Source of the DNA: an uncultured Dehalococcoidales bacterium
GTDB taxonomy: Bacteria > Chloroflexota > Dehalococcoidia > GIF9 > UBA5629
Assembly (NCBI GenBank): GCA_964548415.1
Contig: CAZJQG010000004.1
Location: 4,259 to 68,258 of the forward strand
Direction: 5' to 3'
DNA: 64,000 nucleotides
Under the pieces are notes generated by a model. That model saw only the letters and a list, made by a program, of their open reading frames with translations, was not told where the DNA came from and made no database searches. Below are positions 836-47,048 of the stretch, one piece after another; positions within the stretch are counted from its first letter, which is position 1; each line of letters starts with the position of its first letter. A program made the position numbers and the translations under genes.

Positions 836-895
836 GAAAATTGAAATCTATTGACACATGGTTCCATCGGCTATATTATGTGGCGAATGGAGAAA

Positions 896-3733
896 ATGAT
901 GCGTAAAAAGATATTCTTCTTTTCAACAGCCCTTCTCGTACTATTATCACTACTGGTTTACCCGCTGGCCGACTTGATGCCCGGGAACCGTACCTCAAAC
1001 ACCACAGCTTTATCGACAAACAGTAGTGTGGCTACGGCATACGGCCAGCTGCCCGTACTCTTCATCCGGAACCAGGGGCAGCTGGACAGAACGGTCAAGT
1101 ACTACGTTAAGACGCCGGCGCAGACGCTCTATTTCACTAAAGAGGGCATTGTCTTCGACCTCACGCGCCATAACCAGGCTGAAGCGGCCGGCAGACAGGT
1201 TGAAAGGCTGGTCTTCAGCCTCGACTTTCTGGGAGCGAACAAAAAGCCGGCCGTAGAGGGTACGGACAAAGATACCGCCGTAGTCAATTACTTTAACGGC
1301 AATGACCCACGGATGTGGCGCACCGATATACCAACCTATGGAGAGGTGGTGTACCACGACATTTATCCTTCCATCGACCTCAGGCTCCGCGGAGAGGGAA
1401 ATGCGCTGGAATATGATTTTATCGTTAAACCAGGAGCCAAACCGGAAGATATAACTCTGGCCTACAACGGTGTAGATAGCCTGGCAATCAAAAACGGCGA
1501 GCTCGTGGCCGGCACTGCCTTCGGCTATATAACGCAGGACAGGCCGTACATCTACCAGCAGATTGGGGATGAAACCATGAAGGTGGCCGGCGGTTTCAGA
1601 CTCGGCGCTGGCAACACCTATGGTTTCTATGCGACGGCTTACGATGAGCGCTACCCACTAATCATAGACCCCACGCTGGCCTACTCCACCTACCTCGGCG
1701 GCAGCAGGTTTGATCAGGGAAGTGGCATAACCGTAGATGCAGCCGGTTGTGCCTACGTTACCGGATATACCGGGTCCAGCGACTTCCCCACCCAGATACC
1801 CTACCAGGGGACAAATGCCGGGGCTAACGACGTCTTTGTAGCCAAGCTATCGGCAGCGGGAAACAACCTTATCTACTCAACTTACCTGGGTGGCAGCAGT
1901 GGTGACTCTGGAGGTGGCATAGCCGTGGATGCCGCAGGCTGCGTCTACCTTACCGGGGACACGAATTCCAGTGATTTCCCCACGCAGAACCCCTATCAGG
2001 GGACAATAGCCAGCAGCGATGATGCCTTTGCAGCAAAGCTGTCGGCGGCGGGAAACAGCCTCATCTACTCAACATACCTGGGCGGCAGCTCGACTGATTC
2101 GGGAAACGACATAACTGTCGATGCGGCAGGCTGCGTTTATATCTGCGGAGATACATCTTCAAACAACTTTCCCACACAGAACCCCTATCAGGGGACGTTA
2201 TCCGGTGGTGGTGATGCTTTTGTAACCAAGCTAACGGCGGCGGGAAACAGCCTTATCTACTCAACGTACCTTGGCGGCAATAGTGGTGAGTTGGGACGTG
2301 GCATAGCTGTGGATTCGGCCGGCTGCGCCTATGTCACCGGATTCACGACTTCCAGCAATTTTCCCACACAGAACCCCTATCAGGGGACGATAGCCGGTGC
2401 GGGTGATGCCTTTGTTACTAAGCTGTCGGCGGCGGGAAACAGCCTGATTTACTCCACCTACCTTGGCGGCAGTTCGACTGATTCGACAGCTGGCATAGCC
2501 GTGGATGCGGCGGGCTGCGCCTATGTCACCGGACATACGTCATCCAGCAACTTCCCTACTAAAAACCCGTATCAGGGTACATTAAACGTGAAGGACGATG
2601 CCTTTGTGACAAAGTTTGCGGCGGCGGGAAATAGTCTCAATTATTCTACTTACCTGGGCGGCAGTGACCTCGATGTGGCAGGCGGCATTGCTGTGGATTC
2701 GGCGGGCTGCGCCTATGTCACCGGATATACGCTATCAAGCAACTTTCCGACGCGGAACCCTTATCAGGGTACGAACTACGGGGGTGCTAATACCTTTGTG
2801 ACCAGGCTGTCTGCAGCCGGGAACAGCCTCAGCTACTCGACCTACCTTGGCGGCAGCAGTGGTGACCTGGCAATGGGCATAGCCGTGGATGCAGCCGGGG
2901 GCGCTTATATCACAGGACGGACGAATGCCAGCGACTTTCCTACTCAGAATCCCTATCAGGGGACATTGGCCGGGCTTTTTGATGCATTTGTCTTCAAGTT
3001 TAGCCTTATCCCGCCCAAGGTAACCACTAACGCTGCCACCGGTGTCAGCCTGAATTCAGCTACGCTCAATATGAGCTTCAGCCCTGGTGGGGAAATTGAC
3101 ACGGTCTATGTGCGGTTCGCCTATAAGACAATTGCGGACTCCGACTGGACCTATACGCCATATGTTTCACAGTCTGCGGCAGGCACTTATGCCGAGACAA
3201 TTAGCGGACTCCTTCCCGGCATTCCGTACGATTTCAAGGCGCAGGTTAAATACCTGGCCAATGTGGTCGACGGAGAGACACTACAGTTTGTCACGGGTTC
3301 GCTGTCCCAGCCGCATGTCTCGCCGCCATTGCCCGGCCAGCTCAATCAGGCAAAGGTATACGTGCAATATCTGAACGTAAATCCGGGGCAGGCGTCGGCG
3401 GACCAGCCGGTTATCATCAGCACCAATGTAGTCAATACCGGCGACCAGGCCGGCAGCCTCGACGTCGTGCTCAGGATAAACGGCCAGACGGAGCAGACAA
3501 GGCTGGTCAGCGTGGGCCCTAAGGCAACCCAGCCGGTCAGGTTTACTGTTAGCCGGACACAGCCCGGGACTTATGCCGTGAATATATTCGACCAAGAAGG
3601 TAGCTTCACTGTATCCGGCGACAGCACACCCGGTAGTAAGCCGGTTAATAGCGGCGTAATCGTGGTGCTGGCCTTGATGGTTTTGGTTTTGACAGCGGCT
3701 GTCCTTCTGGTTTTGAAGTTCAGATCTAGCTGA
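896..3733 (+). CDS. Secreted SBBP beta-propeller repeat protein with C-terminal CARDB-like domain and TM anchor
   Basis: Seven ~60-aa repeats of YSTYLGG-x7-GIAVDxxGCxYVTGxTxSxxFPTxNPYQ. The N-terminus is hydrophobic (MMRKKIFFFSTALLVLLSLL). The C-terminal block VVNTGDQAGSLDVVLRINGQ...GTYAVNI is followed by a TM helix and a basic tail. The start was chosen at the Met before the signal peptide. Confidence 0.8.
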   Translation: MMRKKIFFFSTALLVLLSLLVYPLADLMPGNRTSNTTALSTNSSVATAYGQLPVLFIRNQGQLDRTVKYYVKTPAQTLYFTKEGIVFDLTRHNQAEAAGRQVERLVFSLDFLGANKKPAVEGTDKDTAVVNYFNGNDPRMWRTDIPTYGEVVYHDIYPSIDLRLRGEGNALEYDFIVKPGAKPEDITLAYNGVDSLAIKNGELVAGTAFGYITQDRPYIYQQIGDETMKVAGGFRLGAGNTYGFYATAYDERYPLIIDPTLAYSTYLGGSRFDQGSGITVDAAGCAYVTGYTGSSDFPTQIPYQGTNAGANDVFVAKLSAAGNNLIYSTYLGGSSGDSGGGIAVDAAGCVYLTGDTNSSDFPTQNPYQGTIASSDDAFAAKLSAAGNSLIYSTYLGGSSTDSGNDITVDAAGCVYICGDTSSNNFPTQNPYQGTLSGGGDAFVTKLTAAGNSLIYSTYLGGNSGELGRGIAVDSAGCAYVTGFTTSSNFPTQNPYQGTIAGAGDAFVTKLSAAGNSLIYSTYLGGSSTDSTAGIAVDAAGCAYVTGHTSSSNFPTKNPYQGTLNVKDDAFVTKFAAAGNSLNYSTYLGGSDLDVAGGIAVDSAGCAYVTGYTLSSNFPTRNPYQGTNYGGANTFVTRLSAAGNSLSYSTYLGGSSGDLAMGIAVDAAGGAYITGRTNASDFPTQNPYQGTLAGLFDAFVFKFSLIPPKVTTNAATGVSLNSATLNMSFSPGGEIDTVYVRFAYKTIADSDWTYTPYVSQSAAGTYAETISGLLPGIPYDFKAQVKYLANVVDGETLQFVTGSLSQPHVSPPLPGQLNQAKVYVQYLNVNPGQASADQPVIISTNVVNTGDQAGSLDVVLRINGQTEQTRLVSVGPKATQPVRFTVSRTQPGTYAVNIFDQEGSFTVSGDSTPGSKPVNSGVIVVLALMVLVLTAAVLLVLKFRSS

Positions 3734-6838: not shown

Positions 6839-7654
6839 CTACTGGATGACCTTGGTGCACATGAGGCGCCAGGCGGTGCTGTCGAGACTGACGGTTCCCC
6901 AGTAGGCCTGCTTGGCAATCGTTACGTCCGTTTGACGGTCGACGATGTTGTAGCTGCCGGAGCCGGATTCCTCGGCGACCATCCTATGTCCCAGCGCGAG
7001 CAGGTCGGTGTAGTCTTTGAAGGTCGGGTCGGTGAACAGGTTCAGACCGGTATCGATACCGGTTGAATCGTAGAGGTTCAGGCCATCCAGCTGGACTACG
7101 TCCAGGGCAATATCCGTACCTCTCAAAATCGGTCTGGAGGCGCCGGCCAGCATTGTTTCAGGAGCGAAAAGCACGCTTATAGAGCCGGCGAATTTGGCAT
7201 TTTGAGTTTCAATGGGCCACATGAGGACAACGGCGTTCATGCCTTCTACCGCCGGGAACATCTGGCTGAGCATGGGTTTCTTGCTCTGCATGAATTTAAC
7301 CGTTACATCCTGGGTACTGATGTCCGTGCCTTCGTAATTGCGATAGGCATCGGGAGCTACGGTGACCATCATGCCCGCGGGATCAGTGGTGCAGGCATCG
7401 ATTATGAAGGGATATTTGGCGGCCAGGCCGTTCAATATGTTCCCGGTTTCGTCGCCACTCAATCCGGCGCGGGACAGCTCCACAGCTGCGTTCTTCACAT
7501 CGAGGTCAAGTTTATCGAGTTCTGCTTGGACAGCTAATGTAATTTGCTGATTGGTTGTTTTTAGCTCTACTTGCGTGGCGTCAGGGGTAGTGCAGCCGGC
7601 CACTGTGAATATGAGGGATATAGACAGAGCTAAGAGAGATAGTTGTTTTAACAT
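6839..7654 (-). CDS. Lipoprotein with a Cache/PDC-like extracytoplasmic sensor fold (function unknown)
   Basis: Signal peptide plus lipobox (LIFTVAGC). The central block YPFIIDACTTDPAGMMVTVAP...YEGTDIS...KKPMLSQMF...VVLMWPI resembles Cache/PDC ligand-binding domains. No output domain is present. Confidence 0.5.
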   Translation of the reverse strand: MLKQLSLLALSISLIFTVAGCTTPDATQVELKTTNQQITLAVQAELDKLDLDVKNAAVELSRAGLSGDETGNILNGLAAKYPFIIDACTTDPAGMMVTVAPDAYRNYEGTDISTQDVTVKFMQSKKPMLSQMFPAVEGMNAVVLMWPIETQNAKFAGSISVLFAPETMLAGASRPILRGTDIALDVVQLDGLNLYDSTGIDTGLNLFTDPTFKDYTDLLALGHRMVAEESGSGSYNIVDRQTDVTIAKQAYWGTVSLDSTAWRLMCTKVIQ

Positions 7655-8584: not shown

Positions 8585-9754
8585 CTATTCTTTGAAAGTC
8601 AGGGTGATGACTCCTGCGACCCTTATCTTGTCGCCGTCGCGCAGCAGGTATTTGCCCCCGTTGTCGATTCTAGAGCCGTTGAGCTTGGTGCCGTTGGTAC
8701 TGCCGCGGTCCTCGATGAAGCAGTCATCGACTTCGCAGATGAACTTCAGGTGGTTCCGCGAAATAAGGTCGGCTTTTCCCGGTTTCAACAGCGAACTAAA
8801 GTCGCTCCGGCCCAGTGACCCTTTTCCGGACAAAGACAGGTGCTCACCATTGGACAATTCGAACCTCGGTCCGGCGCCGGGTGTGGTGGCCGGAACCCAG
8901 TCCGCGGTCTGCGTGGCCACGGCGTATCCAGTCCTCTTGCCGGAAGGGGCCGGAGCCAGGGCCGGCCTTCGGATAAAGAGGACGATGGCCGCAGCGATGG
9001 CTACAGCCAGCAGACCGAGCAGCGTGATCACCATGCCCAGATTGTCGGTGACCTCGCTGAGACCGCCGGTCAGCACCGTAGTATTTGGTGCGGGGTCTAC
9101 CACCGTGGACACCGGGGCGCTTGTGGTGGGGTAGCTGTAAACATAGGGTGCTACGGTCACCGTAGTGCTGGCGCTGGCGTTGCCACCGCTGCCGGTGGCG
9201 GTTAAGGTATACGTGGTGTTAGAACCCGGGCTCACATTATATGAGCCGGAGGCCTGGACGGTACCGATGCCGGGAGATATTGTGACCGAAGTGGCATTTG
9301 TGGTAGTCCAGCTGAGCAGAATACCCTGCCCTGATTGAATATAAGACGGGCTGGCCGAGAAGGAGTTGATTACCGGCACGTAAACCGGAGGCTGGCTCGG
9401 GTACGAGTACGGGTATGGGTACGAGTAGTGGTATGACGGTATGATTAACCAACTTGATACATACGGAGGCCACCTTAAACCATAGGGGTAGTGATAGTAG
9501 TCACCGTCAGTCGGTGGATAGTGCCATGGCCAGTGCCAGCCATCATCCGGTGGTGATGGTGGAGAGGGCGGAGACGGTGGTAATGGCGGAGAAGGTGGTA
9601 TGGGTGGGACCGGTGGATATGGCGGCCCGACAAGTATGGTGTCAGTGGTCACGTTATCGGAGGCAAATGCCTGCGACACCGGGAATAACTGCGCGGAGAA
9701 CAGCAGTAGTGCTGCTGTTACCGCCAGGATGAGAAAACCTTTTTTGAACCTCAT
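8585..9754 (-). CDS. Single-pass membrane protein: signal peptide, Pro/Tyr-rich region, Ig-like ectodomain, TM helix, cytoplasmic C-terminal FHA domain
   Basis: The FHA signature is GRS...ISRNHLKF...IEDRGSTNGTKLNG...GDKIRV. The TM segment is VITLLGLLAVAIAAAIVLFI. GGAGG lies 5 nt upstream of the ATG. Confidence 0.85.
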   Translation of the reverse strand: MRFKKGFLILAVTAALLLFSAQLFPVSQAFASDNVTTDTILVGPPYPPVPPIPPSPPLPPSPPSPPSPPDDGWHWPWHYPPTDGDYYHYPYGLRWPPYVSSWLIIPSYHYSYPYPYSYPSQPPVYVPVINSFSASPSYIQSGQGILLSWTTTNATSVTISPGIGTVQASGSYNVSPGSNTTYTLTATGSGGNASASTTVTVAPYVYSYPTTSAPVSTVVDPAPNTTVLTGGLSEVTDNLGMVITLLGLLAVAIAAAIVLFIRRPALAPAPSGKRTGYAVATQTADWVPATTPGAGPRFELSNGEHLSLSGKGSLGRSDFSSLLKPGKADLISRNHLKFICEVDDCFIEDRGSTNGTKLNGSRIDNGGKYLLRDGDKIRVAGVITLTFKE

Positions 9755-9855
9755 TTAACCCTCCAAAATTTTATTTAGCTTGAATATCAGTACCGAGCAA
9801 AGGATCAATGCTGCCGTCATTAAGAAAATGGCCTTTTTCAATTTGGCGTCTCTCC

Positions 9856-11463
9856 TTAATTATTATTTTGTTGTTTAAAACTCATATTGAGCTTCCCGGC
9901 CAGCTCTATGACGTCGCCGTCCTCGAGCGCATGACGGCCGGTACCCTTGATATCCATACCGTTGACCCTGGTGCCGTTGGTGCTGCTGCGGTCTTCGATG
10001 TAGTAACGTCCCTTTTCGGTCCAGATATTGATATGCTGGCGTGATATATATGAGACCTGCGAAGCAGACATTAATTCTTCGAAGTCGTGACGGCCGAACG
10101 AACGTGAATTTCCGGCCAGTAGTATGTCGTTGCCGTTTTTCAGCTTGAGCTTGGCCGGCGCTGCCTCCGCCACAGCCACCGGTGTGGTGGCCAGTTCCGT
10201 ATCTTCGGTATCGGTGTCTCCGGTATCGGTGTCTGCCGAAGCATTGGCCCGGGCCGCCGCAGTGGCTGCCTGGCGTAACGGACGGGCCCTGGATTGTCGC
10301 GTGCCAAGAAGTACGGCTATAACAATGACGGCTACGGCCAGCAGGGCGATAAGCCCCCACAGCAGGTAGGGAGGCTGCTCCACGCTTACGGTTGCTAAGC
10401 TCGACTGGGTAGTACCGTCGACGTAATTGGCTGTCAGCGTGTAAGTAGTTGTCTGGGCAGGCGAAACCTGTGTGGTGCCGCTGCTGCTGACGCTGCCGAT
10501 GCCAGAGATATAGACACTGACGGCTCCAGGAGCATTCCAGGTTAGCGAGGCTGACTGCCCGCTCTTTATGGTGGGCAGGCTGAGACTCAGGCTTGGCGAC
10601 ACCTTCGGCATGACAGTTACGGTAGCGGTCGATGTCACGGCGCTGCCCGATTGACCCGTGGCCGACAGCGTGTAAGTTGTGGTGGCCGAAGGAGTGACCG
10701 TGGTTGAACCGGAAGCGGCCACCGTGCCCACTCCGGGTGAAATTGTCACGCTGGTGGCGCTGGTGGTCGTCCAGGTAAGCACCACCGTCTCACCACCCTG
10801 TATGGCGGACTTGCTGGCAGTGAAGGAGCTGATGGAGGCAGGGTTATAGACGGGCGACGGTGCGTAACCTGGTATGTCCGGCGGATAATAGCCTCGGATG
10901 TAATTGAAATGGAGAATGCGGGTGGACCAGGAACCACCTGATGTGTACCACATCCTCCAGGTGTACCGACCGGAGGGGTCGAACGACTGGGCGACGAAGG
11001 GGCCGATTCTCCAGGTACCGCCATAAGGCCGATACCACCGGTAGCACAGCCAGTGTCCGTAGGGTGAAGCCGGGTAAGGGTAATATTCCCAGAGATAAAA
11101 ATAACCGGGTCCGTTGAAGGATACCACCAGGTATATAGCCTGGTTGCCGTACATGCTGGTGACAATCCGGCCGTAGGCGTCCGTTATATATGCATTGTAT
11201 ATAGAACCGGCGTAGCCGGGGGGATAAGGTGGATAAGGATATGTTTGTGTACCCGGTGATGATGTGTCTGGTGCCGCCTCACTGTATTGCTCCACCGGTA
11301 CCGGCGGCTCTACGGCCTGTCCGGCCTCTTCGGGCGGCTGCCACGATTCCTCGGGGCTGGCCGGTGGCGTAGGGTTGTCATCGGCGAATGTCAGCGAGAT
11401 TTGTACCAGCGCCACCGAGAAGACGACGACGGTAACTATCAGTGCGCTTAAGATTTTTTTCAT
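9856..11463 (-). CDS. Single-pass membrane protein: signal peptide, W/Y-rich ectodomain, three Ig-like repeats, TM helix, cytoplasmic FHA domain
   Basis: The FHA signature is FGRHDF...ISRQHINIWTEKGRYYIEDRSSTNGTRVNG...GDVIELAG. The TM segment is LLWGLIALLAVAVIVIAVLL. The Ig-like repeats are of the form TWTTTSATSVTISPGVGTV...TTTYTL. Confidence 0.85.
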   Translation of the reverse strand: MKKILSALIVTVVVFSVALVQISLTFADDNPTPPASPEESWQPPEEAGQAVEPPVPVEQYSEAAPDTSSPGTQTYPYPPYPPGYAGSIYNAYITDAYGRIVTSMYGNQAIYLVVSFNGPGYFYLWEYYPYPASPYGHWLCYRWYRPYGGTWRIGPFVAQSFDPSGRYTWRMWYTSGGSWSTRILHFNYIRGYYPPDIPGYAPSPVYNPASISSFTASKSAIQGGETVVLTWTTTSATSVTISPGVGTVAASGSTTVTPSATTTYTLSATGQSGSAVTSTATVTVMPKVSPSLSLSLPTIKSGQSASLTWNAPGAVSVYISGIGSVSSSGTTQVSPAQTTTYTLTANYVDGTTQSSLATVSVEQPPYLLWGLIALLAVAVIVIAVLLGTRQSRARPLRQAATAAARANASADTDTGDTDTEDTELATTPVAVAEAAPAKLKLKNGNDILLAGNSRSFGRHDFEELMSASQVSYISRQHINIWTEKGRYYIEDRSSTNGTRVNGMDIKGTGRHALEDGDVIELAGKLNMSFKQQNNN

Positions 11464-11592
11464 TGTGACTCTCCGAACAACATATATTTAACTAGTATAA
11501 ATATACGTCCCGGGGGAGCTGTGTGCTTGACGCGCTGCTGACAGGTCACTGACAGTTGGCTGACAAAATGGAAAACGAGGATTTTATGTGGA

Positions 11593-12663
11593 TCAAAGCA
11601 GATGAAACTTTAATGAGACAGTGCCGGCGGGCTCAATGAGGTCGCCATCTGCGAGTTTAACCGGGCCCTGGTGGCTAATGTCTTTATGGTTAAGGGTTGT
11701 GCCGTTAGCCGAGCCTAGGTCTTCGATATAGAAATGCTCCCCATCCGCTTTTACCTGAAAATGTTTTCTGGAGATGAGCGTCAATTCGTCCAGGCTCAGC
11801 GCGCGGGACAGGTCGGCGCGGCCTATCACTTGCTCTTCACCGCAAAGGCGGATAGAGTTTCCGTCCGGTAATGATATTCTGGCCCTGGCGGGTACCAGTA
11901 GCAGGTTATCTGGAAAGGATGCCGATATTTCCTCTTCTACGGACAGCCGACTTCGGCGGCGCCACAAAAAAAACAATACTAGCGCTAGTCCGATGACTAC
12001 CGCCAAGAGGCAGGCCCCCAGTACCATAGGCCTGGTGAAAAACTCTTTTAGCCGTGAGACGAAGCCCGGTTCTTCAACCGGCGTTACCGGTGGCGAAAGG
12101 GATTCGGCAGGTTTATTTTTGGTATAAGTCCAGTAGATCAGGTTGTTTGGTGAAGTCTGGTCGCTACCGGCCCACTGGTCCCCGCTGTAGAACCAGACCC
12201 GGTAGGCGTGTTGTCCCTCAGCTTCATTGTCGGTTGGCGCGAAGGGGCCAAGCCGCCACAGGCCGCTCTCTGGCAGCTGCCATTTGTACGCCAGCCACTG
12301 GCCGGGTTGGGCCTGGTCCTGCGGGAAATATTCGTAGATATAAGCCCAACCGGGTGCGTTTACGTCAAGGTCGAGATACCAGTGCTCGTCACCGGTGACG
12401 ACGGGCTCATTATTACCAGAAGCCGGCGTGAAGGCGATGATAATGCCGGGCGGCGTGGTTTCGGTTTGCGACGTAGCCCGGAGCAGTACGTATTCGACCG
12501 GCGGCTTGATTTCGTTTTGGGGCTGCTCGCCGGCGGGAGAATTGGGGATGGTGGTGTTGTCGCTGGGCGCTCCCAGGGCGGCCACCGGAGCAGCTGGCAA
12601 AATCAGCACTGCCATAGTGCTGAAGGTCAGGACGAGAGCCAGTAAAGCTAGCTTATTTTTCAT
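11593..12663 (-). CDS. Single-pass membrane protein: signal peptide, W/Y-rich ectodomain (paralogous to that of 9856..11463), TM helix, cytoplasmic FHA domain
   Basis: The FHA signature is IGRADL...ISRKHFQVKADGEHFYIEDLGSANGTTLN...GDLIEPAG. The start was moved to the internal Met (MKNKLALLALVL, a signal peptide) at 12663. The longer ORF extension overlaps the kinase gene and looks non-coding. Confidence 0.8.
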   Translation of the reverse strand: MKNKLALLALVLTFSTMAVLILPAAPVAALGAPSDNTTIPNSPAGEQPQNEIKPPVEYVLLRATSQTETTPPGIIIAFTPASGNNEPVVTGDEHWYLDLDVNAPGWAYIYEYFPQDQAQPGQWLAYKWQLPESGLWRLGPFAPTDNEAEGQHAYRVWFYSGDQWAGSDQTSPNNLIYWTYTKNKPAESLSPPVTPVEEPGFVSRLKEFFTRPMVLGACLLAVVIGLALVLFFLWRRRSRLSVEEEISASFPDNLLLVPARARISLPDGNSIRLCGEEQVIGRADLSRALSLDELTLISRKHFQVKADGEHFYIEDLGSANGTTLNHKDISHQGPVKLADGDLIEPAGTVSLKFHLL

Positions 12664-13666
12664 TTTTATCACGAGATGGGGCAGCCTTAACCTGATAGCC
12701 CTCCGCCGATGATAGAGCTGCCTTGAAGGCTTTGGCATCGGCGAATCTGCGGTCGGCGGAAAAAAGTATGCCCTGTGCCAGGCATTTGGCGGTGCGCTTG
12801 GATATGCCGCGGGAAACCAGGTAGTCGGCCACCGCGCCGGCTTCGGCGTAGGAGCGCGGCCAGTTTGATTTGAACAGGTCGAGGCAAATTTCGTTGGGAT
12901 GTTTGAGCGTAAGCATATAGATGCAGGTCTGTGCCAGACCGAATAGATCGCAGCGCTGGTCGGCATCGCCGCCGATGAACAGTTCCGGAATATCGAAGCC
13001 CTTGTTGGTTATCTTGGTGAACGGGTCGTGGCCCCCCTTGTCTTTATCGGAGCCGTTTAAGTTTTTAGCAGTGCCGAAATCAATTAGCTTGACCGTGCCG
13101 TTGTCGGCGAGCATGATGTTCTTGGGATTGATGTCCCGGTGAATGACGCCGGCTTCATGTATGTAAGACAGCGCGTCCAGCAGCTGGCAAGCCCAGGCAA
13201 TGACCTGGGGTTCCTGATACGGAGTCCGGGGCGAGGCTGCCATCAGCGTTTCCCCGTTAACGTATTCCATCACCAGGTTAAATTCTCCCTTGTAGTAAAA
13301 ATTATCAAGGTATTTGACGATGGCGGTATGTTTAAGTCGCTTCAGGTAGCTGGCTTCCAGCATCAGCTTGTCTAGGTAGACGTTGTCCATGGCGGTTCCG
13401 CGGCGCGGCGTCTTGATGATGCAGGGTTTTCCGGTCTTGCGATTGCGGCCGTACCAGATGGTGGCCATGCCGCCTTGCTTGTATGGCGGTGCTACCAGTT
13501 CGTAGCGACCGTTGACCACGTAGACGTTGTTACTGCTATGCACAGGCATTTGCGGTTTGGCTGGCGAGTATCTCCGGCGCCGGCGAACGACGAGCAGCAC
13601 GATGACCACCACTGCCAGCGTGGCCCAGACCATTATCATCAGCATCAGGGCATCATCGGGCCACAT
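12653..13666 (-). CDS. Hanks-type Ser/Thr protein kinase with only an N-terminal TM anchor
   Basis: The catalytic loop HRDINPKNIML and DFGTA are present, and the VAIK-like block is KPCIIKTP. An N-terminal hydrophobic helix (LMLMIMVWATLAVVVIVLLVV) is followed by RRRRR. There is no C-terminal sensor region. Confidence 0.9.
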   Translation of the reverse strand: MWPDDALMLMIMVWATLAVVVIVLLVVRRRRRYSPAKPQMPVHSSNNVYVVNGRYELVAPPYKQGGMATIWYGRNRKTGKPCIIKTPRRGTAMDNVYLDKLMLEASYLKRLKHTAIVKYLDNFYYKGEFNLVMEYVNGETLMAASPRTPYQEPQVIAWACQLLDALSYIHEAGVIHRDINPKNIMLADNGTVKLIDFGTAKNLNGSDKDKGGHDPFTKITNKGFDIPELFIGGDADQRCDLFGLAQTCIYMLTLKHPNEICLDLFKSNWPRSYAEAGAVADYLVSRGISKRTAKCLAQGILFSADRRFADAKAFKAALSSAEGYQVKAAPSRDKNEK

Positions 13667-14469
13667 TACGTTCTCCTCAGGCTGGTCTCGGCGGCAATCA
13701 TGGCCTGCCAGGACGGCAGATTGTCGGGTTTAACGACGATTATGGATATATTGTCCGGTCCGCCGGCCAGATTAGCCTGAGCTGTCAGGTCGGTGCAGGC
13801 CTGGTCTGGAGTGGCGGCACCGTTGACCGTCTCTGCAATTTGAGACGAAGGCAGCACACCGCAGAGGCCGTCCGAGCAAAGCAGTATGTTGTCGCCGGCA
13901 TATAGCTTTACATAATATAGGTCAGGTATAACGTTGCGGGTGTAACCCAGGACGCGGGTTATCTCGTTTTTACGAGGGTGTTTTCTGGCCTCTTCCGGGC
14001 TGATAGCACCAGCATCCACTAGTTCCTGTACCACGGAATGGTCGCGCGTGACCTGCATTATTTCTCGCTGGTTGATAACATAGCATCGGGAATCTCCAAC
14101 GTGGGCCACGTAAAGATCGCCGCCTATTACCAGAGCCGCGGTCAGTGTGGTGCCCATACCTTTTAGCTCGGCTTCGGTGGCGGAGTCCAGCACCTTGCGG
14201 TTGGCTTTCTTGAAGGCGGCGGCTAAGACCTGGAGTGGAGCGATGGGAGTTTTGGCGTGAAGGCCGAAGATACATTCGGCATGCAGCGTCTTGGTGGCCA
14301 GGTGGCTGGCGATTTCACCGGCGTTGTGGCCGCCCATGCCGTCGGCTACCGAGAACAGTCCGGCCGAGGTGGTGCCCAGGTGTGTCCTGAGGTCGAAGGT
14401 AGTGCACAGGACGCTGTCTTCGTTGAGCTCTCTCAGCAGCCCCGTATCCCAGCTGTAACCCGTTTCCAT
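13666..14469 (-). CDS. PP2C-family Ser/Thr phosphatase
   Basis: The motifs SVADGMGGHNAGEIAS, AHVGDSRCY and LLCSDGLCG are present. Its stop overlaps the kinase start (TAATG). Confidence 0.9.
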   Translation of the reverse strand: METGYSWDTGLLRELNEDSVLCTTFDLRTHLGTTSAGLFSVADGMGGHNAGEIASHLATKTLHAECIFGLHAKTPIAPLQVLAAAFKKANRKVLDSATEAELKGMGTTLTAALVIGGDLYVAHVGDSRCYVINQREIMQVTRDHSVVQELVDAGAISPEEARKHPRKNEITRVLGYTRNVIPDLYYVKLYAGDNILLCSDGLCGVLPSSQIAETVNGAATPDQACTDLTAQANLAGGPDNISIIVVKPDNLPSWQAMIAAETSLRRT

Positions 14470-14471
14470 TT

Positions 14472-15062
14472 TTATTTAACGCCTTTGAACAATTTAAAAG
14501 TTAGTGTAAGCTCCGACTGGCCGGCCAGCTCGATTTTATCGCCGCTTTTCAGAGCTTTCCTGGTCTTGCCGTGTATATCGACGCCGTTGAGTTTAGTATG
14601 GTTGGTGCTGCCCGTGCCGTCACGGCCGTAGTCTTTGACATAGTATCTGCCTCTATCGTAGGTAATGAGAATGTGCTGCCGGGATACTTTCATCAGCAAG
14701 TCCGCCGACGCTTTCCCGTCAAAGTCGCTGCGTTCGATGAAGGTGGGCTCACCGCTGAGCGTGACTATAGAACCACCGGGCATGATGATCCTGGCTTTGG
14801 GCGACGGATGTGGCACGCTCTTTTTAGTTGTAGAGGGAAGCCGGCTTATCTTGGTCGGCTCTGCCTCAGCAAAGTATTTGCCGCAGGCGTAGCAAAAGAA
14901 GCTGGCAGCGTTATTGGAGTGCCGGCAGCGCGGGCAGATGATTTTGCGGGCGGGCTCGTCCTGTGATGCGGCCAGGGGCAGCCCGCATTTATGGCAGACT
15001 TTTTCATTCGCCTCGTTCCTGGCGTGGCAGGCCCGGCAAGTAATTTTAGCCCGTTTACGCAT
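14472..15062 (-). CDS. Double zinc-ribbon plus FHA domain protein (cytoplasmic)
   Basis: Two CxxC-x10-12-CxxC ribbons (CRACHARNEANEKVCHKCG; CPRCRHSNNAASFFCYACG) are followed by FHA (VSRQHILITYDRGRYYVKDYG...STNHTKLNG...GDKIELAG). Confidence 0.85.
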   Translation of the reverse strand: MRKRAKITCRACHARNEANEKVCHKCGLPLAASQDEPARKIICPRCRHSNNAASFFCYACGKYFAEAEPTKISRLPSTTKKSVPHPSPKARIIMPGGSIVTLSGEPTFIERSDFDGKASADLLMKVSRQHILITYDRGRYYVKDYGRDGTGSTNHTKLNGVDIHGKTRKALKSGDKIELAGQSELTLTFKLFKGVK

Positions 15063-15118
15063 TGTTTTTAACAGTCCGTGGTGTTAAAGACAGTGTAGCT
15101 GATTGGTAGGGACTCTGC

Positions 15119-15147
15119 TTGACAGCTTTCTGACAAATACCTAATAT
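15119..15147 (+). promoter_or_regulatory. Sigma-70-like promoter for the FHA-wHTH regulator gene (TTGACA-17-TAATAT)
   Basis: TTGACA lies at 15119-15124, followed by a 17-nt spacer and TAATAT at 15142-15147, ~60 nt upstream of the ATG at 15211. Confidence 0.5.
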
Positions 15148-15210
15148 AAATCTGATATACTCACGGTTTAATCGCATGTATTATACTACACCGAATAAAA
15201 GGCAGCCCAA

Positions 15211-15894
15211 ATGGGTGGAGGTTACGTGGCTTCGTTAATTGTGAGGAAGGGCACCGCCGAGGACATAGGTAAAATCTTCAGCCTGGACCTGTCGCGCACT
15301 GTGGTTGGTCGGCTTACGCTGCAAAACAAACCCGATATCGAACTCAGCGCCGATGTCATTTCCAGACAGCACCTGGAGATTGTGAGTCAGGACGCTAAGT
15401 ACTGGGTGAAAGACCTGGGCAGCACCAACGGCACCACGCTTAACGACGACCGCATAATTCCTGGAAACCTATACGAGCTCAAGCACAATGCCAGGATAGG
15501 ATTGGGAGTGGAAGGGACGTCTCAGCAAACCGTCCTGGTGTTCAAGGAGTCCGAAGATACCAATATCATGCGGGCAAAAGAAGGCAGCGTACCCGCGGTA
15601 GTATCATGGCTGAAGGTAGACGAGGGCAGGAAGGAGGCCGTGGTGGACGGCAAGCCGAAGAAGCTATCCAAGAAGGAATACGACCTGCTGCTGCTGCTTT
15701 ATCGTAACGCCGGAAATATCTGCTCCCGCGACGAGATAATCGAGGCTGTCTGGCCGGAAACGAAGGACGCTTCGGCGATATCAGATGCCACCATCGACCA
15801 GCTTATTCACCGGCTGCGGGAAAAGGTGGAACCGAAACCTGCCAAACCGACGAGAATAATCAGTAAGAAGGCATTTGGCTATATGCTGGTGTAG
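15211..15894 (+). CDS. Fusion regulator: N-terminal FHA domain plus C-terminal OmpR/PhoB-type winged-helix DNA-binding domain
   Basis: The FHA block is VGRL...ISRQHLEIVSQDAKYWVKDLGSTNGTTLND. The wHTH block is LSKKEYDLLLLLYRNAGNICSRDEIIEAVWP...ATIDQLIHRLREKVE...IISKKAFGYMLV. No receiver domain is present. Confidence 0.85.
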   Translation: MGGGYVASLIVRKGTAEDIGKIFSLDLSRTVVGRLTLQNKPDIELSADVISRQHLEIVSQDAKYWVKDLGSTNGTTLNDDRIIPGNLYELKHNARIGLGVEGTSQQTVLVFKESEDTNIMRAKEGSVPAVVSWLKVDEGRKEAVVDGKPKKLSKKEYDLLLLLYRNAGNICSRDEIIEAVWPETKDASAISDATIDQLIHRLREKVEPKPAKPTRIISKKAFGYMLV

Positions 15895-36929: not shown

Positions 36930-39900
36930 TTACTGTGTCGCCTGATAATAAAAAGTACTGCTATAGTCCCCGGGGGTTTGTCCGGCAGGGATTGATATCC
37001 AGTGATAGCATTGATGAACATCGCCTGCATAGGCGGACACAGTATACCACGTGACGTAGCTGGTCTGCATAGTGCTGGCTCCGAGAGTAGTGTTGACGCT
37101 ATTATATTTGACGTTAGCTATTGATATATTTCCGGGACCGCTAAAGTTATCACCTCTAATCTGAACATTGACATCTACGTTTGTCTCCGTGCTAACGGTG
37201 AGTGTGACCGCACCCTGACTGGGTGTCTGGTCAGCGGGTTGATCGGTCGTTCCGGGGTTCAGGCTGCCAAACTTGATGCCGTCGCCACTATAGTCTGTGA
37301 CCGTGAATGAAATGTAGATATTTGACTCCCCGATAGCAAAATCGCCAAATGACGCCAATCCCGTCGCCTGCGTACTCGTAGACGTACGTGTGCCAACTGC
37401 GGGATATGCCCAGGTAGAGCCATTGAAATTGCCGACAATAAATGTACTGGTGTTGGCCCCACTATCGATATCGCCTGAATTGAAATTGAAGGTGGCGCTA
37501 TAGTTTGTGAAACCGATTCCTGAGTTTGTTAAGCTCCAGTATAAATTAACGCTCTTACTCGAATTGATTGTAGAAGATGCAATGGATGGGTGATCGCCTG
37601 GCGTGGCTTTTGCAGTTAGATTGCCGGCAGTGCCGACACTATTAAAAATTACAGTGACGGGATTATAGCCACTTGTGGTACCGATTTCGAATGTGCATGA
37701 GACGTTTGTCCCAGAAGAAACATTCTTCTGCAAGTTGCCGATGATATAGCCGCTGGTGCGTGAGACGCTGCCGCCGGTTCCAATTATGACTGTACTGCCG
37801 CCGGTGGTAATCTTGCTGCTGGTTAAATTAAGTATATTGTTGATTGTGGCGTTGTTATTCAGGTTAAGACCGTTGCTGTTATTAAGCGTAAGGTTATAAA
37901 AGGTGGTGGCGCCGGTCACCGACTGCGTGCTTGTCCCATTCAAGGTGATAGTGCTGCTATTTGCCGTGAACGTCCCACTATTATTCCAGTTTCCTGTCAG
38001 GCTCAGCGTGCTGGAACCGCCATTCAATGTGCCTGCGGTCAGCGTGACGTCGCCGTTGATGGTATGTGTTAATCCGGTACCAAGATTCAATGTCCCGCCA
38101 GAACCGTCAAGGGTTAAGGCAATTCCATTCACATTTCCGGTTAAGGTAGCCGTACCTCCGGTCTTTGTCATAGATACGATACCGGAGGTGGAGAAGCCGG
38201 CGATGCTCTGCGTTCCTGTGCCGCTGATTGTAATAGTGGAGGTGCCGGCGGTAAACGTGCCGCTATTGATAAAGTTGCCGCCGAATGTGAGGGCGTAGCT
38301 GCCGGTGTTTAATATGGCGCCGGTGTTAATAGTAAGCGGAGCGTTGATTACCTTCCCCTGATTTAGTGTAACCGCACTGCCACTCGTATTAGCAATTATT
38401 ACTCCTCCCGAACCGCTCCACGTTGCCGGAAATTCCGTTCCCGTCGTTTGAGCGCTGGTCCCCTTGTATTGCAGCGTAGCGGCCGCGCCGTATGTGGGGG
38501 TTGTTCCCGTGGTTGTGGCAGTCCCTTCAATGGAGAGAATGCCGTTAATATTTATGGTACCAATAGCCTTTTGCCCGCTGCCGGACAGTGTAAGGTTGTT
38601 ATATGTTGTCATCCATGTGGTCGGGAGCGTTTGAGCAGCGCCGTAGTACTCAACAGTACCCGTACCGGGAGTCCATGTGCCCCTCGTCCCATTGATTGAG
38701 ACTGTGGTACCGATTTTCAGAGTACCACCACTGGACATATTGATGCTACCCCGCCTATTACCATTACCCCCGACACTTAGCCATGTACCGATCGTGAGCT
38801 GTGATACGCTATTTAAAAATGATAGTGTTGAGGTGGTGTTATTGGTAGTACCCACGGTGAGGGTTGAGCATACAGCATCACTTACGTTGACGGTCACCGT
38901 ATAACCGTTGTTAATAAATACATTATCGTTCGAAGTAGGTACAGCGGCACCTCCCCAGGTGGCTGTATTGTTCCAGTTGCCACTAGCTGAGGCCGTTCTG
39001 GTAGCCGCTGGGGCGTATACCGGTGGCGTGGGGCCGGGTTCCGGTGTGGGGACTGGAGCGGGTATTATAGGCGGTGTTGCCGCCTCACCCATGGCTGTGG
39101 CTATGTTAATACGACCAAACCACTGGTTTGGTACCGGGTCAACCGCGCCTCGGATCTGGTCGAAGACATAATCATTGTTTTGTCCATTTGCCGTCAGTAG
39201 AGCTGCCAGCCCGGCTACATTGGCAGCGGCGGCAGAAGTGCCGCTTATGGTGTAATAATTACCGCCTATAAACGTAGTGTAAATACCGACTCCAGGTGCA
39301 GCCACGTTGGCGCTGCCCGTATTGCTATCAGCGGCTACATTATCGTCCTGGTCGGTGGATGCGACTCCAAGCACGTGCTCCATGCCAGCCGGATAACTGG
39401 GTGCAGTTGAACCATCGTTGCCCGTAGCGGCCACTAACACGCATCCCTTGTTCCATGCGTACTGGATGGCGTCCGCTAATGCATCCGAGTAATCGGGGCT
39501 GCTGAAGCCCATCAAAATAACATTGGCGCCGTTATCGGCTGCCCACAGCATGCCGGCCACGATATCGCTGTCCAGGCCAGTGCCATCAGGTTGAAGCACC
39601 TGGACCGAAGAGAGTGTAGTTCCAGCATAAGCTACGCCAGCGATGCCGACAGCGTTGTTGACATTGGCAGCGGCTATGCCGGCTAGCGCGGTTCCATGGC
39701 CGTTCGGGTCACAGCTGGCATCACCATCGACGAAGCTCTGTCCTGATACAATACGGCCGGCAAAATCCGGGTGACCGGAATCTATGCCTGTATCCAGCAC
39801 TGCAATCGTGGCCGAGCCGGTAAAATTCCGTATATCGTAAACTTGATCCCAGGACATCTTGGGCAGAGCCCATTGCTGCGAATACAGAGGATCATCCGGT

Positions 39901-40235
39901 GTTCCGGCCTTATGGAACTTGACGGCCTTGGATGCTCGTTCGACGTGAGGGTTATTTGCCAGCGTGGACAGTACATTGTCTGCTGCCGCCGCCGGCACGC
40001 TGATTACATGTGTGTGAAGTTGCGAAAAATGGCGTAGGGCTTTGCCATGTGAGGCCTGTATTGCTGTATCTACTGCAGAGGTATTATCAGCATCCTTGAA
40101 TTTGACGATGATTTGGACTGTATCGTCGGATGGCTGTGCCTGAGTGATGCTGGTCGAGCTCACCAGTGTGAGCGTCGCCAGCATCACCATGAGTGTCAGT
40201 CCAACAACACATCTACGCAAAAACTGCTTTCCCAT
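36930..40235 (-). CDS. Secreted subtilisin-like (S8) serine protease with I9 propeptide, long Thr/Gly/Asn-rich beta-helix-like passenger and a C-terminal domain homologous to the neighbouring 172-aa protein
   Basis: The catalytic triad blocks are AVLDTGIDSGHPDF, HGTALAGIAA and SGTSAAAANVAGLAALL. The I9-like block is IVKFKD...HVISVP. Imperfect ~20-aa TGxxxLxxxGN repeats follow. The start was taken at the Met before the signal peptide (MGKQFLRRCVVGLTLMVML). Confidence 0.85.
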   Translation of the reverse strand: MGKQFLRRCVVGLTLMVMLATLTLVSSTSITQAQPSDDTVQIIVKFKDADNTSAVDTAIQASHGKALRHFSQLHTHVISVPAAAADNVLSTLANNPHVERASKAVKFHKAGTPDDPLYSQQWALPKMSWDQVYDIRNFTGSATIAVLDTGIDSGHPDFAGRIVSGQSFVDGDASCDPNGHGTALAGIAAANVNNAVGIAGVAYAGTTLSSVQVLQPDGTGLDSDIVAGMLWAADNGANVILMGFSSPDYSDALADAIQYAWNKGCVLVAATGNDGSTAPSYPAGMEHVLGVASTDQDDNVAADSNTGSANVAAPGVGIYTTFIGGNYYTISGTSAAAANVAGLAALLTANGQNNDYVFDQIRGAVDPVPNQWFGRINIATAMGEAATPPIIPAPVPTPEPGPTPPVYAPAATRTASASGNWNNTATWGGAAVPTSNDNVFINNGYTVTVNVSDAVCSTLTVGTTNNTTSTLSFLNSVSQLTIGTWLSVGGNGNRRGSINMSSGGTLKIGTTVSINGTRGTWTPGTGTVEYYGAAQTLPTTWMTTYNNLTLSGSGQKAIGTININGILSIEGTATTTGTTPTYGAAATLQYKGTSAQTTGTEFPATWSGSGGVIIANTSGSAVTLNQGKVINAPLTINTGAILNTGSYALTFGGNFINSGTFTAGTSTITISGTGTQSIAGFSTSGIVSMTKTGGTATLTGNVNGIALTLDGSGGTLNLGTGLTHTINGDVTLTAGTLNGGSSTLSLTGNWNNSGTFTANSSTITLNGTSTQSVTGATTFYNLTLNNSNGLNLNNNATINNILNLTSSKITTGGSTVIIGTGGSVSRTSGYIIGNLQKNVSSGTNVSCTFEIGTTSGYNPVTVIFNSVGTAGNLTAKATPGDHPSIASSTINSSKSVNLYWSLTNSGIGFTNYSATFNFNSGDIDSGANTSTFIVGNFNGSTWAYPAVGTRTSTSTQATGLASFGDFAIGESNIYISFTVTDYSGDGIKFGSLNPGTTDQPADQTPSQGAVTLTVSTETNVDVNVQIRGDNFSGPGNISIANVKYNSVNTTLGASTMQTSYVTWYTVSAYAGDVHQCYHWISIPAGQTPGDYSSTFYYQATQ

Positions 40236-40310
40236 ATTGCTTCCTGGCTCCCTGCATCGCCAAGAAGTATCCATTGTCAGTGTTTTACGAGCAGGTTCTT
40301 ACTTTTTACT

Positions 40311-40965: not shown

Positions 40966-41056
40966 GCAAAAACCGACCTATTTTTGGGTCGGTTTCACTA
41001 CTGGCTCGGCACCGCTCAAGTGACCAAATTACAAACGGTGCTTCATTGCCTCCCAA
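40966..41056 (-). promoter_or_regulatory. Class-II c-di-GMP riboswitch (aptamer plus intrinsic-terminator expression platform), copy 1
   Basis: The minus strand reads GGGAGGCAAUGAAGCACCGUUUGUAAUUUGGUCACUUGAGCGGUGCCGAGCCAGUAGUGAAACCGACCC-AAAAAUA-GGGUCGGUUUUUG. It contains the conserved c-di-GMP-II blocks (CAAUGA, AAUUUGGNCACUUGA, AGUAGUGNAACCGACC). Its helices covary with copy 2. Confidence 0.8.
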
Positions 41057-41091
41057 TTCATGAAATAATGACTATTTATTTAGCTGACTAA

Positions 41092-46843: not shown

Positions 46844-46936
46844 TAAAAAAACCGACCGTTAAAATGGGTCGGTTTCACTACTGGCTCAGCACAAGTCAAG
46901 TGACCAAATTATTACTCGTGCTTCATCGCCCCCCAA
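46844..46936 (-). promoter_or_regulatory. Class-II c-di-GMP riboswitch (aptamer plus terminator), copy 2, upstream of the giant adhesin
   Basis: The minus strand reads GGGGGGCGAUGAAGCACGAGUAAUAAUUUGGUCACUUGACUUGUGCUGAGCCAGUAGUGAAACCGACCC-AUUUUAAC-GGUCGGUUUUUUU. AGGAGG and the ATG at 46795 follow ~35-50 nt later. Confidence 0.8.
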
Positions 46937-47048
46937 CAAGTTCTTAAGTACGTAAATTATTTCGAGTTGGTTACCTCCATGGCAGCCTTCGACTTGATTT
47001 GAAGTTACTTAAACAACACGCAAATCTGCCAAATTTACGATAATTTAC

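Follow-up and report, generated by a model that had tools for sequence, protein, structure and literature searches.

The 64,000-nucleotide stretch of DNA analyzed here (the window; GenBank assembly GCA_964548415.1, contig CAZJQG010000004.1) belongs to an uncultured Dehalococcoidia bacterium whose habitat is freshwater or freshwater sediment. It harbors a seven-gene unit centered on forkhead-associated (FHA) domains, which encodes a zinc-ribbon-FHA protein (ZnR-FHA), a PP2C phosphatase, a Ser/Thr kinase, three membrane FHA proteins (mFHA356, mFHA535, and mFHA389), and, divergently, a regulator that joins an FHA domain to a winged helix-turn-helix (wHTH) DNA-binding domain (FHA-wHTH regulator; Table 1). 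Judged from sequence, the seven genes probably form, on a modest balance of the evidence, one autoregulated transmembrane Ser/Thr-phosphorylation circuit with an output via the FHA-OmpR-type regulator.

Table 1. Genes and predicted regulatory elements of the seven-gene unit, in window coordinates.
Feature	Position	Strand	Length	Basis or remark
Zinc-ribbon-FHA (ZnR-FHA)	14472-15062	-	196 aa	Pfam DZR 4.2e-08 + FHA 2.4e-10
PP2C	13666-14469	-	267 aa	Pfam PP2C
Ser/Thr kinase	12653-13666	-	337 aa	Pfam Pkinase 8.3e-35
mFHA356 (membrane FHA)	11593-12663	-	356 aa	Pfam FHA, C-terminal
mFHA535 (membrane FHA)	9856-11463	-	535 aa	Pfam FHA, C-terminal
mFHA389 (membrane FHA)	8585-9754	-	389 aa	Pfam FHA, C-terminal
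FHA-wHTH regulator	15211-15894	+	227 aa	Pfam FHA 9.3e-17 + Trans_reg_C 1.1e-19
Regulator promoter, predicted sigma-70, TTGACA-N17-TAATAT	15119-15147	+		promoter scan
Kinase-operon array	15116-15157	-		four 11-bp-phased repeats; phylogenetic footprint, 42 loci
-10 box TACACT, ZnR-FHA/PP2C/kinase/mFHA356 operon, predicted	15092-15097	-		consensus TA.a.T conserved
Receptor-operon array	11524-11565	-		four repeats phased at 11 bp; conserved in 34 loci
-10 box TATATT, mFHA535/mFHA389 operon, predicted	11500-11505	-		consensus TATA.T, 34 loci

Every domain match of the seven proteins exceeds its Pfam cut-off. From ZnR-FHA to mFHA389, the five successive junctions on the minus strand are a gap of 2 nt, overlaps of 1 and 11 nt, and gaps of 129 and 101 nt. 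The open reading frames (ORFs), domains, spacings, and topologies given in a preliminary description of this DNA are borne out by the ORF, Pfam, and hydropathy analyses, save that the protein listed there as FHA-357 is actually 356 residues long, with its start placed at 12663 by the orthologues and the signal peptide. The longest possible mFHA356 ORF (457 aa) would run through the kinase gene and is without orthologue support. The mFHA356 start overlaps the end of the kinase gene, and this overlap is retained in nearly all loci, usually as 4 nt. Hydropathy reveals no transmembrane (TM) segment in ZnR-FHA, the FHA-wHTH regulator, or the window PP2C, and the last holds likewise for 38 of 43 PP2C orthologues.

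The unit is conserved across a clade. A scan of one genome per species recovered 43 loci with a kinase orthologue (56-89% identity), nearly all of which are labelled Dehalococcoidia or carry another Chloroflexota name, and a second scan added ten more. When the seven window proteins were searched by tblastn, all seven genes were found to be colinear in 34 of the 37 species-level Dehalococcoidia genomes with sequence sufficient to judge. In the shared layout, the regulator is divergent; ZnR-FHA, PP2C, kinase, and mFHA356 overlap or abut; and mFHA535 and mFHA389 follow. The preliminary description had treated the genes as one arrangement and had named their scattering in related genomes as the observation that would speak against it; they are not scattered, and the arrangement stands as one conserved unit. 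The flanking SpoU methylase and CDP-alcohol transferase genes are common to the closest relatives only; therefore, the unit is taken to be the seven genes. Chromosome OY970123.1 of this clade carries the module. In a pattern-based genome scan with the regulator alignment, FHA-wHTH proteins were confined to this Dehalococcoidia/Chloroflexota group, the remaining matches being ordinary response regulators. None of more than 1300 database relatives of mFHA535 bears a functional name, and word-based protein searches returned only unnamed orthologues.

A paralogous module (L124:1359-10675) is located on the same contig as L018/L127, about 45 kb apart. There, an FHA-wHTH gene lies divergently to a gene series encoding a CARDB protein, an FHA-trypsin-like protease, a PD40 beta-propeller protein, a protein of unknown type, vWA and DZR-FHA proteins, a kinase, and a PP2C. 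A core of FHA-wHTH, DZR-FHA, kinase, and PP2C thus seems to recur in combination with varying membrane or extracytoplasmic partners. Four relatives of the window module have additional genes, coding for secreted proteins, inserted between mFHA356 and mFHA535 (L015:12861-16064, L016:6695-8720, L018:12224-12688, and L027:12167-14401). The inserted proteins share a C-terminal ..DPN.ILYISG.. motif followed by a TM segment and a basic tail, a possible signal for sorting or anchoring; this motif does not occur in the window.

The kinase is a Hanks-type enzyme (Pfam Pkinase, 120.9 bits vs a cut-off of 31.7). Its GGMATIW (Gly loop), IIK (Lys), HRDINPKN, DFG, DPFT, and IPE motifs are at least 95% conserved among 41 orthologues, and Thr217 of the activation loop (DPFT217) is invariant. 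The closest solved structure is that of Mycobacterium tuberculosis PknB, with the HRD and DFG motifs aligned. A single N-terminal TM helix followed by RRRRR is found in 39 of the 41 orthologues, leaving about 8 residues outside the membrane; the helix itself is 22% identical across orthologues. Pfam and hydropathy thus confirm the earlier description of the kinase as sensor-less, as it has no ectodomain. It does not belong with the PASTA kinases PknB/Stk1, since model NF033483 scores 113 bits vs a cut-off of 450 and matches the kinase domain only, and the TM segment is N-terminal.

The phosphatase falls within the Stp1/IreP group of PP2C enzymes (NF033484, 252.1 bits vs a cut-off of 230), and its metal-binding motifs NEDS, DGMGGH, SDGL, and GGPDN are conserved in 43 orthologues. 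ZnR-FHA harbors a DZR region (residues 9-61) and an FHA domain (residues 125-179); conservation is seen in the second zinc ribbon and in the FHA domain but not in the linker between them. Its architecture of N-terminal zinc ribbon, flexible linker, and C-terminal FHA is ArnA-like. No vWA gene, which would encode an ArnB-type partner, is present in the window module, and one is present in the paralogous module L124. All five FHA proteins exceed the Pfam cut-off and keep the GR/ER, SR.H, and TNG/TNH motifs in their orthologues, so that phosphothreonine binding is predicted; the Arg, Ser, His, and Asn residues responsible for it are at least 95% conserved in all five domains. These invariant key residues suggest an active kinase and PP2C and competent FHA domains.

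The three membrane proteins each have a signal peptide and one internal TM segment followed by Arg/Lys, as judged by hydropathy. They had been described as receptor-like, and this topology holds; moreover, their ectodomains are conserved like the FHA domains, with identities of 56-66% for ectodomains and cytoplasmic FHA domains and of 20-45% for stalks and linkers. In mFHA356, the signal peptide is followed by an ectodomain here termed domain X, the TM segment, and the cytoplasmic FHA. In the AlphaFold2 (AF2) model, mFHA535 consists of a signal helix, a disordered Pro-rich stalk, domain X (residues 86-192, modelled as a beta domain at 88-189), two Ig-like domains, the TM segment (366-386), a disordered linker (388-432), and the FHA domain (437-531). 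mFHA389 has a signal peptide, a Pro/Tyr-rich region, one Ig-like domain, the TM segment, a linker, and the FHA domain. The three are therefore a mosaic of paralogous parts: the aromatic-rich domain X is common to mFHA535 and mFHA356, the Ig-like domain is common to mFHA535 and mFHA389 (63% identity), and the FHA domain is common to all. The TM segment of mFHA535 (residues 364-387, window 10303-10374) is 67% identical, like the folded domains, while that of mFHA356 is 23% identical; the conservation of the former suggests a specific contact within the membrane.

Conserved threonines are found in two of the cytoplasmic linkers. In mFHA535, these are Thr417 and Thr427 within the motif ..DT.P.TTP[VAI], and in mFHA389 it is Thr290 within P.T290[TS]P[VIL]. 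The preliminary description had proposed that the FHA receptors recruit or gate the kinase or are its substrates; in only two of the three do conserved linker motifs speak for a role as substrate and scaffold.

Domain X is not represented in Pfam, and a search of 1.84 billion representative proteins matched only 63 clusters. An FHA domain is also present in 28 of the 59 domain X proteins scanned with Pfam. Modelled alone, domain X forms a confident beta sandwich (predicted local distance difference test, pLDDT, 95.7), with weak likeness to carbohydrate-binding modules (CBMs), the Wzt C-terminal domain, RhoGDI, and other Ig-like folds. A fold search with the whole mFHA535 model returned generic Ig-like tandem arrays only.

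Between mFHA535 and mFHA389 lies a 28-codon ORF (9755-9841, minus strand) with a TTG start and a ribosome-binding site upstream. It encodes the hydrophobic peptide LKKAIFLMTAALILCSVLIFKLNKILEG, a duplicate of the signal-peptide segment of mFHA389. The ORF is open in the window and in nine related loci (26-32 aa, with a basic end) and is absent from more distant loci.

The regulator carries the proposed output. Its Trans_reg_C domain scores 70.7 bits vs a cut-off of 26.2 in Pfam, NCBIfam places the DNA-binding half in the OmpR/PhoB response-regulator type, and a PDB sequence search aligns it to the effector domains of the response regulators RegX3, PhoB, RpaB, RstA, and VicR. However, the protein has no receiver domain with a phospho-acceptor Asp, as its N-terminal half is the FHA domain. 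The NCBIfam response-regulator equivalog models fall far short of their cut-offs, with matches limited to residues 116-226. Nor is the regulator a member of the EmbR/SARP group: it has no BTAD match, its domain order is reversed, and the PDB search at E 1e-3 did not return EmbR.

Immediately following the FHA domain, the regulator harbors Thr117 within the motif FKE[ST]E.T[NS][ILV][IML]. This threonine shows no variation among 37 orthologues or among 30 database proteins, and the motif is 77% identical vs 22% for the linker that follows it. An equivalent is kept in three of four distant paralogues (45-51% identical). Thr117 has a hydrophobic residue at +3, the position at which many FHA domains prefer one. 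The recognition-helix region SDATIDQLIHRLREKVEP is almost invariant among regulator paralogues. DNA-binding domains of the OmpR/PhoB type bind direct repeats spaced by one helical turn.

Such repeats are found at both promoters that read in the direction of the kinase. The kinase-operon array consists of TATCAGA (15157-51), a degenerate TATTAGG (15146-40), TGTCAGA (15135-29), and TGTCAAG+GCA (15124-16), the fourth unit appearing as TGTCAAGCA in the footprint of the divergent region. The receptor-operon array consists of three TGTCAG units (11565-60, 11554-49, and 11543-38) and CGTCAAG+GCA (11532-24), and its consensus reads TGTCAG-N5-TGTCAG-N5-TGTCAG-N6-GTCAAGCA, followed, 20 nt beyond the end of GTCAAG, by TATA.T. 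Both promoters have the same 20-nt distance between GTCAAG and the -10 box, and the promoter scan found no sigma-70 -35 box at either. The exact sequence GTCAG-N6-GTCAAGCA has two occurrences in the 64-kb window, both at module promoters. In the 43 related loci, all phased arrays with at least three of the four repeats are upstream of the two module operons and always on the kinase strand.

The promoter assigned to the regulator is the best promoter-like site between 8300 and 16000, with 10 of 12 matches, and conservation of both hexamers across 42 loci is at least 80%. The -35 and -10 boxes of this promoter, as well as its start region, share bases with the kinase-operon array on the opposite strand. 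Promoters activated by PhoB/OmpR classically have direct repeats one helical turn apart in place of a -35 box. Because the repeats both replace the -35 box and overlap the regulator promoter, one bound protein is predicted to activate the kinase and receptor operons and to repress the regulator promoter. The earlier suggestion of an output via the FHA-wHTH protein is thus backed by conserved, operator-like arrays at the promoters of the module itself.

A further 15-nt block, TTGCAGTATAATATA as read on the minus strand, lies at about 15176-15190 of the window, between the predicted transcription start of the regulator and its ATG, and is at least 80% conserved in 42 loci. A similar block, TGCAGTATAATATCAGA, precedes the array of the Anaerolineae locus L283. 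The 15-nt block could be a second promoter, another operator, or an element of the 5' untranslated region.

The occurrence of the motif outside the module was assessed with its three-repeat form in a complete scan of the genome collection. The form occurs at 53 places, most of them on Dehalococcoidia/Chloroflexota contigs; about 15 of the 53 are scattered in unrelated taxa, vs a rough chance estimate of about 17. Most of the places in the clade are on contigs already known to hold the module, and several others were examined. The examined Dehalococcoidia places are either module promoters or upstream of one membrane-FHA gene and of a coiled-coil lipoprotein gene. The former is found at L291, where the motif precedes the gene for a 666-aa protein with a signal peptide and a C-terminal FHA, on another contig of the same metagenome-assembled genome (MAG) as L018; by its predicted architecture, this protein is a fourth membrane FHA receptor. 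The latter is represented by homologous coiled-coil lipoprotein genes in two module-bearing MAGs (L161 and L292).

The motif also accompanies other regulators of this kind. The promoter of the paralogous module L124 reads TGTTAG, TGCAGG, TGCAAG, TGTCAAGCA, 20 nt, and TAGACT, in a layout like that of the window module, and at L197 the motif adjoins an FHA-wHTH gene. At L156:5573-6857 and L233:962-2623, GTCAG-N6-GTCAAGCA-N18-TAnnnT lies beside genes with a C-terminal Trans_reg_C and neither a receiver nor an FHA domain. The L156 gene encodes a 403-aa Saccharibacteria protein whose N-terminal part is unknown, and the L233 gene, at one of the examined places of the three-repeat scan, encodes an AAA_35 + Trans_reg_C protein in a Chloroflexota MAG. 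Its presence at FHA-system genes, at the paralogous module, and at other Trans_reg_C genes ties the motif to this wHTH lineage.

In Anaerolineae, a related array, CGTAGG/CGTCAGG/CGTCAAGCA-N18-TACACT, precedes dnaE or dnaX in about 20 genomes (among the matches listed). The dnaE loci are L157, L173, L179, L184, L194, L206, and L220, and the dnaX locus is L227; at L283, the array precedes pspA (PspA/IM30). Two Anaerolineae sites, L283 and L297, were recovered in the three-repeat scan. The array is situated 230-430 nt upstream of dnaE, and the leader between them is conserved and CU-rich (..TTCTCTTCTTCTCCTCC..), with no match to an Rfam family in this region.

On the basis of these features, a mechanism can be proposed for the circuit. 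The sensor-less kinase, with its one N-terminal helix, and the Stp1-type PP2C would write and erase phosphothreonine. The three type-I membrane proteins, each with a beta-sandwich ectodomain and a cytoplasmic FHA, would serve as co-receptors and scaffolds: the kinase would phosphorylate the linker motif of mFHA535 and mFHA389 (..TTP followed by a hydrophobic residue), the FHA domains would read it, and a phospho-dependent cluster of receptor, kinase, and adaptor would form at the membrane, as with PknF and Rv1747. ZnR-FHA may be a soluble adaptor or co-regulator, like ArnA. Phosphorylation of Thr117 would join regulator molecules FHA-to-phosphothreonine, replacing the dimerization of receiver domains in PhoB/OmpR, and the joined regulator would occupy the four 11-bp-phased TGTCAG/TGTCAAG repeats. 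An array in the -35 position at the kinase and receptor operons would lead to activation, and an array over the sigma-70 promoter of the regulator would lead to autorepression. Alternatively, the regulator could be held at phosphorylated receptors, or the FHA domains could engage the linkers of their own proteins in cis, in a GarA-like manner.

Several observations weigh against this circuit. We infer binding of the regulator to the repeats solely from adjacency and domain family, and the 8-kb loci around the Anaerolineae arrays (among the matches listed) contain no FHA-wHTH gene, so that a different, clade-wide factor could read the motif. One regulator paralogue, L122, is without an equivalent of Thr117. 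The juxtamembrane segment of the window kinase contains no Thr; FHA docking would therefore have to use Thr217 of the activation loop. The orthologue alignment likewise reveals no conserved Thr in the linker of mFHA356. The domain X model has no PDB match at E 1e-3, and thus no ligand is assigned. The receptor set differs in three genomes: L015 has another gene content in place of the receptor pair, mFHA389 is missing from L022, and the pair of L114 is on another contig of the same MAG, where it has an operator array of its own (L266). Finally, the locus is contained in no RNA run and was found only in freshwater or sediment DNA metagenomes; the operon structure and transcription starts are therefore predictions.

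A more far-reaching form of the circuit is a "threonine two-component system", in which the FHA domain and the adjacent Thr replace the receiver, phosphothreonine-dependent oligomerization drives cooperative binding to the four repeats, the sensor-less kinase is gated or scaffolded by single-pass FHA co-receptors, and the wHTH-operator pair is a portable output module. This extension is held tentatively, as a possible but doubtful generalization. Portability is suggested by the same DNA motif beside wHTH proteins with other input domains (AAA_35 and, in the candidate phyla radiation, an unknown one). The split input of sensor-less kinase and FHA co-receptors is reminiscent of cytokine receptors and JAK and of plant receptor-like proteins and cytoplasmic kinases.

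Other readings of the same genes have to be weighed. The membrane FHA proteins may act inside-out as surface structural or adhesion proteins, with their clustering set by the kinase and phosphatase via FHA-phosphothreonine contacts and their stoichiometry kept by the regulator. Rv1747 clustering and Fha1 in type VI secretion provide parallels, the tandem beta-sandwich ectodomains most resemble adhesins, S-layer proteins, and immunoglobulin superfamily (IgSF) proteins, and C-terminally anchored surface proteins are inserted in the module of L015, L016, L018, and L027. The regulon so far, which consists of the module, one further FHA membrane protein, and a lipoprotein, and the 67% conservation of the mFHA535 TM helix would also suit such a role. 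However, the module is not linked to genes for secretion, an S-layer, or an assembly ATPase, and a dedicated transcription factor with operator arrays points to signaling, as does the conservation of domain X and the Ig domains at the level of ligand-binding domains, though structural contact would fit the latter too. A structural function is thus considered unlikely, while retaining an appreciable share of probability. It is somewhat less probable still that the repeats are read by another, Chloroflexota-wide regulator and that the FHA-wHTH protein has other targets. That possibility is raised by the Anaerolineae arrays, which keep the same 18-nt distance to TACACT in about 20 genomes (among the matches listed), precede dnaE/dnaX and at one site pspA, and have no FHA-wHTH gene within 8 kb. 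Yet the Anaerolineae unit is CGTAGG or CGTCAGG, not TGTCAG. In Dehalococcoidia, the arrays are at module promoters or at other FHA-system genes, they overlap the promoter of the regulator itself, and the paralogous FHA-wHTH genes L124 and L197 also have them; the near-invariance of the recognition helix SDATIDQLIHRLREKVEP among paralogues argues in the same direction.

A role in division or growth control, as a counterpart of the actinobacterial FhaA/FhaB(FipA)-PstP-RodA-PbpA-PknA-PknB cluster, is very unlikely. In that cluster, FHA, PP2C, and Hanks kinase genes are likewise grouped, FhaB being a small membrane-anchored FHA protein; FhaB/FipA is also the NCBIfam model that the FHA domains match best, albeit weakly, and PknB is the closest solved kinase. 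The preliminary description had nonetheless set the module apart from it for want of RodA, FtsW, or penicillin-binding protein (PBP) genes, a distinction that is upheld, as none of these genes is present in the module or next to it, the FhaB model NF049868 scores 28-44 bits vs a cut-off of 125, and the module also lacks PASTA domains and a phosphatase TM segment. Conversely, three type-I FHA proteins with large ectodomains are part of the module, as is a transcription factor with operators, which the actinobacterial cluster lacks, and ftsK, the sole division-related gene seen in the window, is 10 kb away and unlinked in other genomes; a division cluster was accordingly rejected. The lowest probability is assigned to a kinase-based anti-phage defense or conflict system. 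Kinase/phosphatase defense modules do exist, such as KKP (PMC11341870), and the kinase matches the PADLOC models PD-T4-6 and mad6 (which have no curated cut-off), with PP2C weakly matching PDC-M21C. However, the PADLOC matches cover the generic kinase fold only, on which ground defense was considered unlikely, and none of the five FHA proteins matches any defense model. In addition, the module has no nuclease or toxin effector, is syntenic clade-wide, and comprises seven proteins that diverge together, unlike patchy defense islands. Type III, VI, or VII secretion was also rejected, since the Yop-YscD_cpl and TagH matches reflect FHA-fold similarity and are below their cut-offs (24-28 bits vs 120 for the type VI TagH model TIGR03354), with no secretion genes nearby and no type VI secretion system (T6SS) genes among the window ORFs scanned.

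The autoregulated circuit can be compared with several characterized systems. In the PknH-EmbR pair of M. tuberculosis, a Hanks kinase signals to an FHA-containing OmpR-like transcription factor (PMC9239209, PMC4601284). Both systems would lead from a kinase to a winged helix of the Trans_reg_C type combined with an FHA domain, which provides the phospho-dependent link to the kinase. However, EmbR has the order wHTH-BTAD-FHA, whereas the window regulator has the order FHA-wHTH, no BTAD, and a DNA-binding domain of the response-regulator type. PknH has its own sensor ectodomain, which the window kinase lacks, and the PknH-EmbR pair has neither membrane FHA proteins nor a PP2C gene in the unit, unlike the window module. 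We know of no phased operator array over the regulator's own promoter for PknH-EmbR. The module resembles OmpR/PhoB two-component systems in its homologous output domain, repeats replacing the -35 box, autoregulation, and membrane input. In contrast to these, it has neither a histidine kinase nor a receiver, and the phospho-acceptor would be an FHA-read Thr rather than an Asp.

For the membrane FHA proteins, the nearest parallel is Rv1747, which has cytoplasmic FHA domains and a disordered linker with phospho-acceptor Thr residues that are phosphorylated by the neighboring PknF, leading to FHA-phosphothreonine self-association (PMC8339232, PMC5549992). Rv1747 is, however, an ABC transporter with two FHA domains, whereas the window proteins are single-pass, with beta-sandwich ectodomains and one FHA each. 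ArnA from Sulfolobales, which consists of a zinc ribbon, a flexible linker, and a C-terminal FHA, binds its phosphorylated partner and, with this partner, promoters (PMC10470591). The 196-aa ZnR-FHA has the same layout; unlike the window module, ArnA is archaeal and has a vWA partner, and a PDB search found no sequence relation between the two beyond their domain types. In Deinococcus radiodurans, the operon DRA0331-0334 encodes vWA, Ser/Thr kinase, FHA, and PP2C proteins, with the FHA protein acting as a docking switch for kinase and phosphatase (bioRxiv 10.64898/2026.01.23.701218). This operon and the type VI PpkA/PppA/Fha1 pathway are similar to the window module in encoding a kinase, a PP2C, and FHA proteins together; they differ from it in having no transcription factor or FHA receptors and in having vWA proteins or the T6SS as partners.

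Literature and database searches returned no description of the seven-gene circuit, of the FHA-wHTH order with operator arrays, of three FHA co-receptors around a sensor-less kinase, or of domain X. The components are all of known kinds, and the closed seven-gene circuit looks undescribed so far. Most bacterial Hanks-type kinases have no known private output and no known signal source, whereas this circuit appears closed, from receptors through kinase, phosphatase, and adaptor to a transcription factor and its predicted DNA sites. At 7 kb it is also compact, and its conservation extends to more than 50 species of a class that is hard to culture. It offers a test of whether FHA-phosphothreonine pairing can replace receiver dimerization and of how co-receptors may control a sensor-less kinase. 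Domain X provides a rare, confidently modelled ectodomain, and the DNA motif is usable to find regulons in Chloroflexota.

Elsewhere in the window, a 960-aa protein with DUF7948 and an SBBP beta-propeller is encoded at 851-3733 (plus strand), and a 271-aa secreted protein at 6839-7654 (minus strand) consists of a Cache-like "HK/GC/chemotaxis sensor" domain without an output domain; neither gene is conserved beside the module in related loci. Two cyclic-di-GMP-II riboswitches are present on the minus strand, at 40978-41062 (74.9 bits) and 46858-46942 (65.5 bits). One is upstream of the gene for a 1114-aa S8 subtilase (36930-40274), and the other is 63 nt upstream of that for a 1599-aa PKD-domain surface protein (41996-46795), suggesting that these secreted and surface proteins may be under cyclic-di-GMP control.

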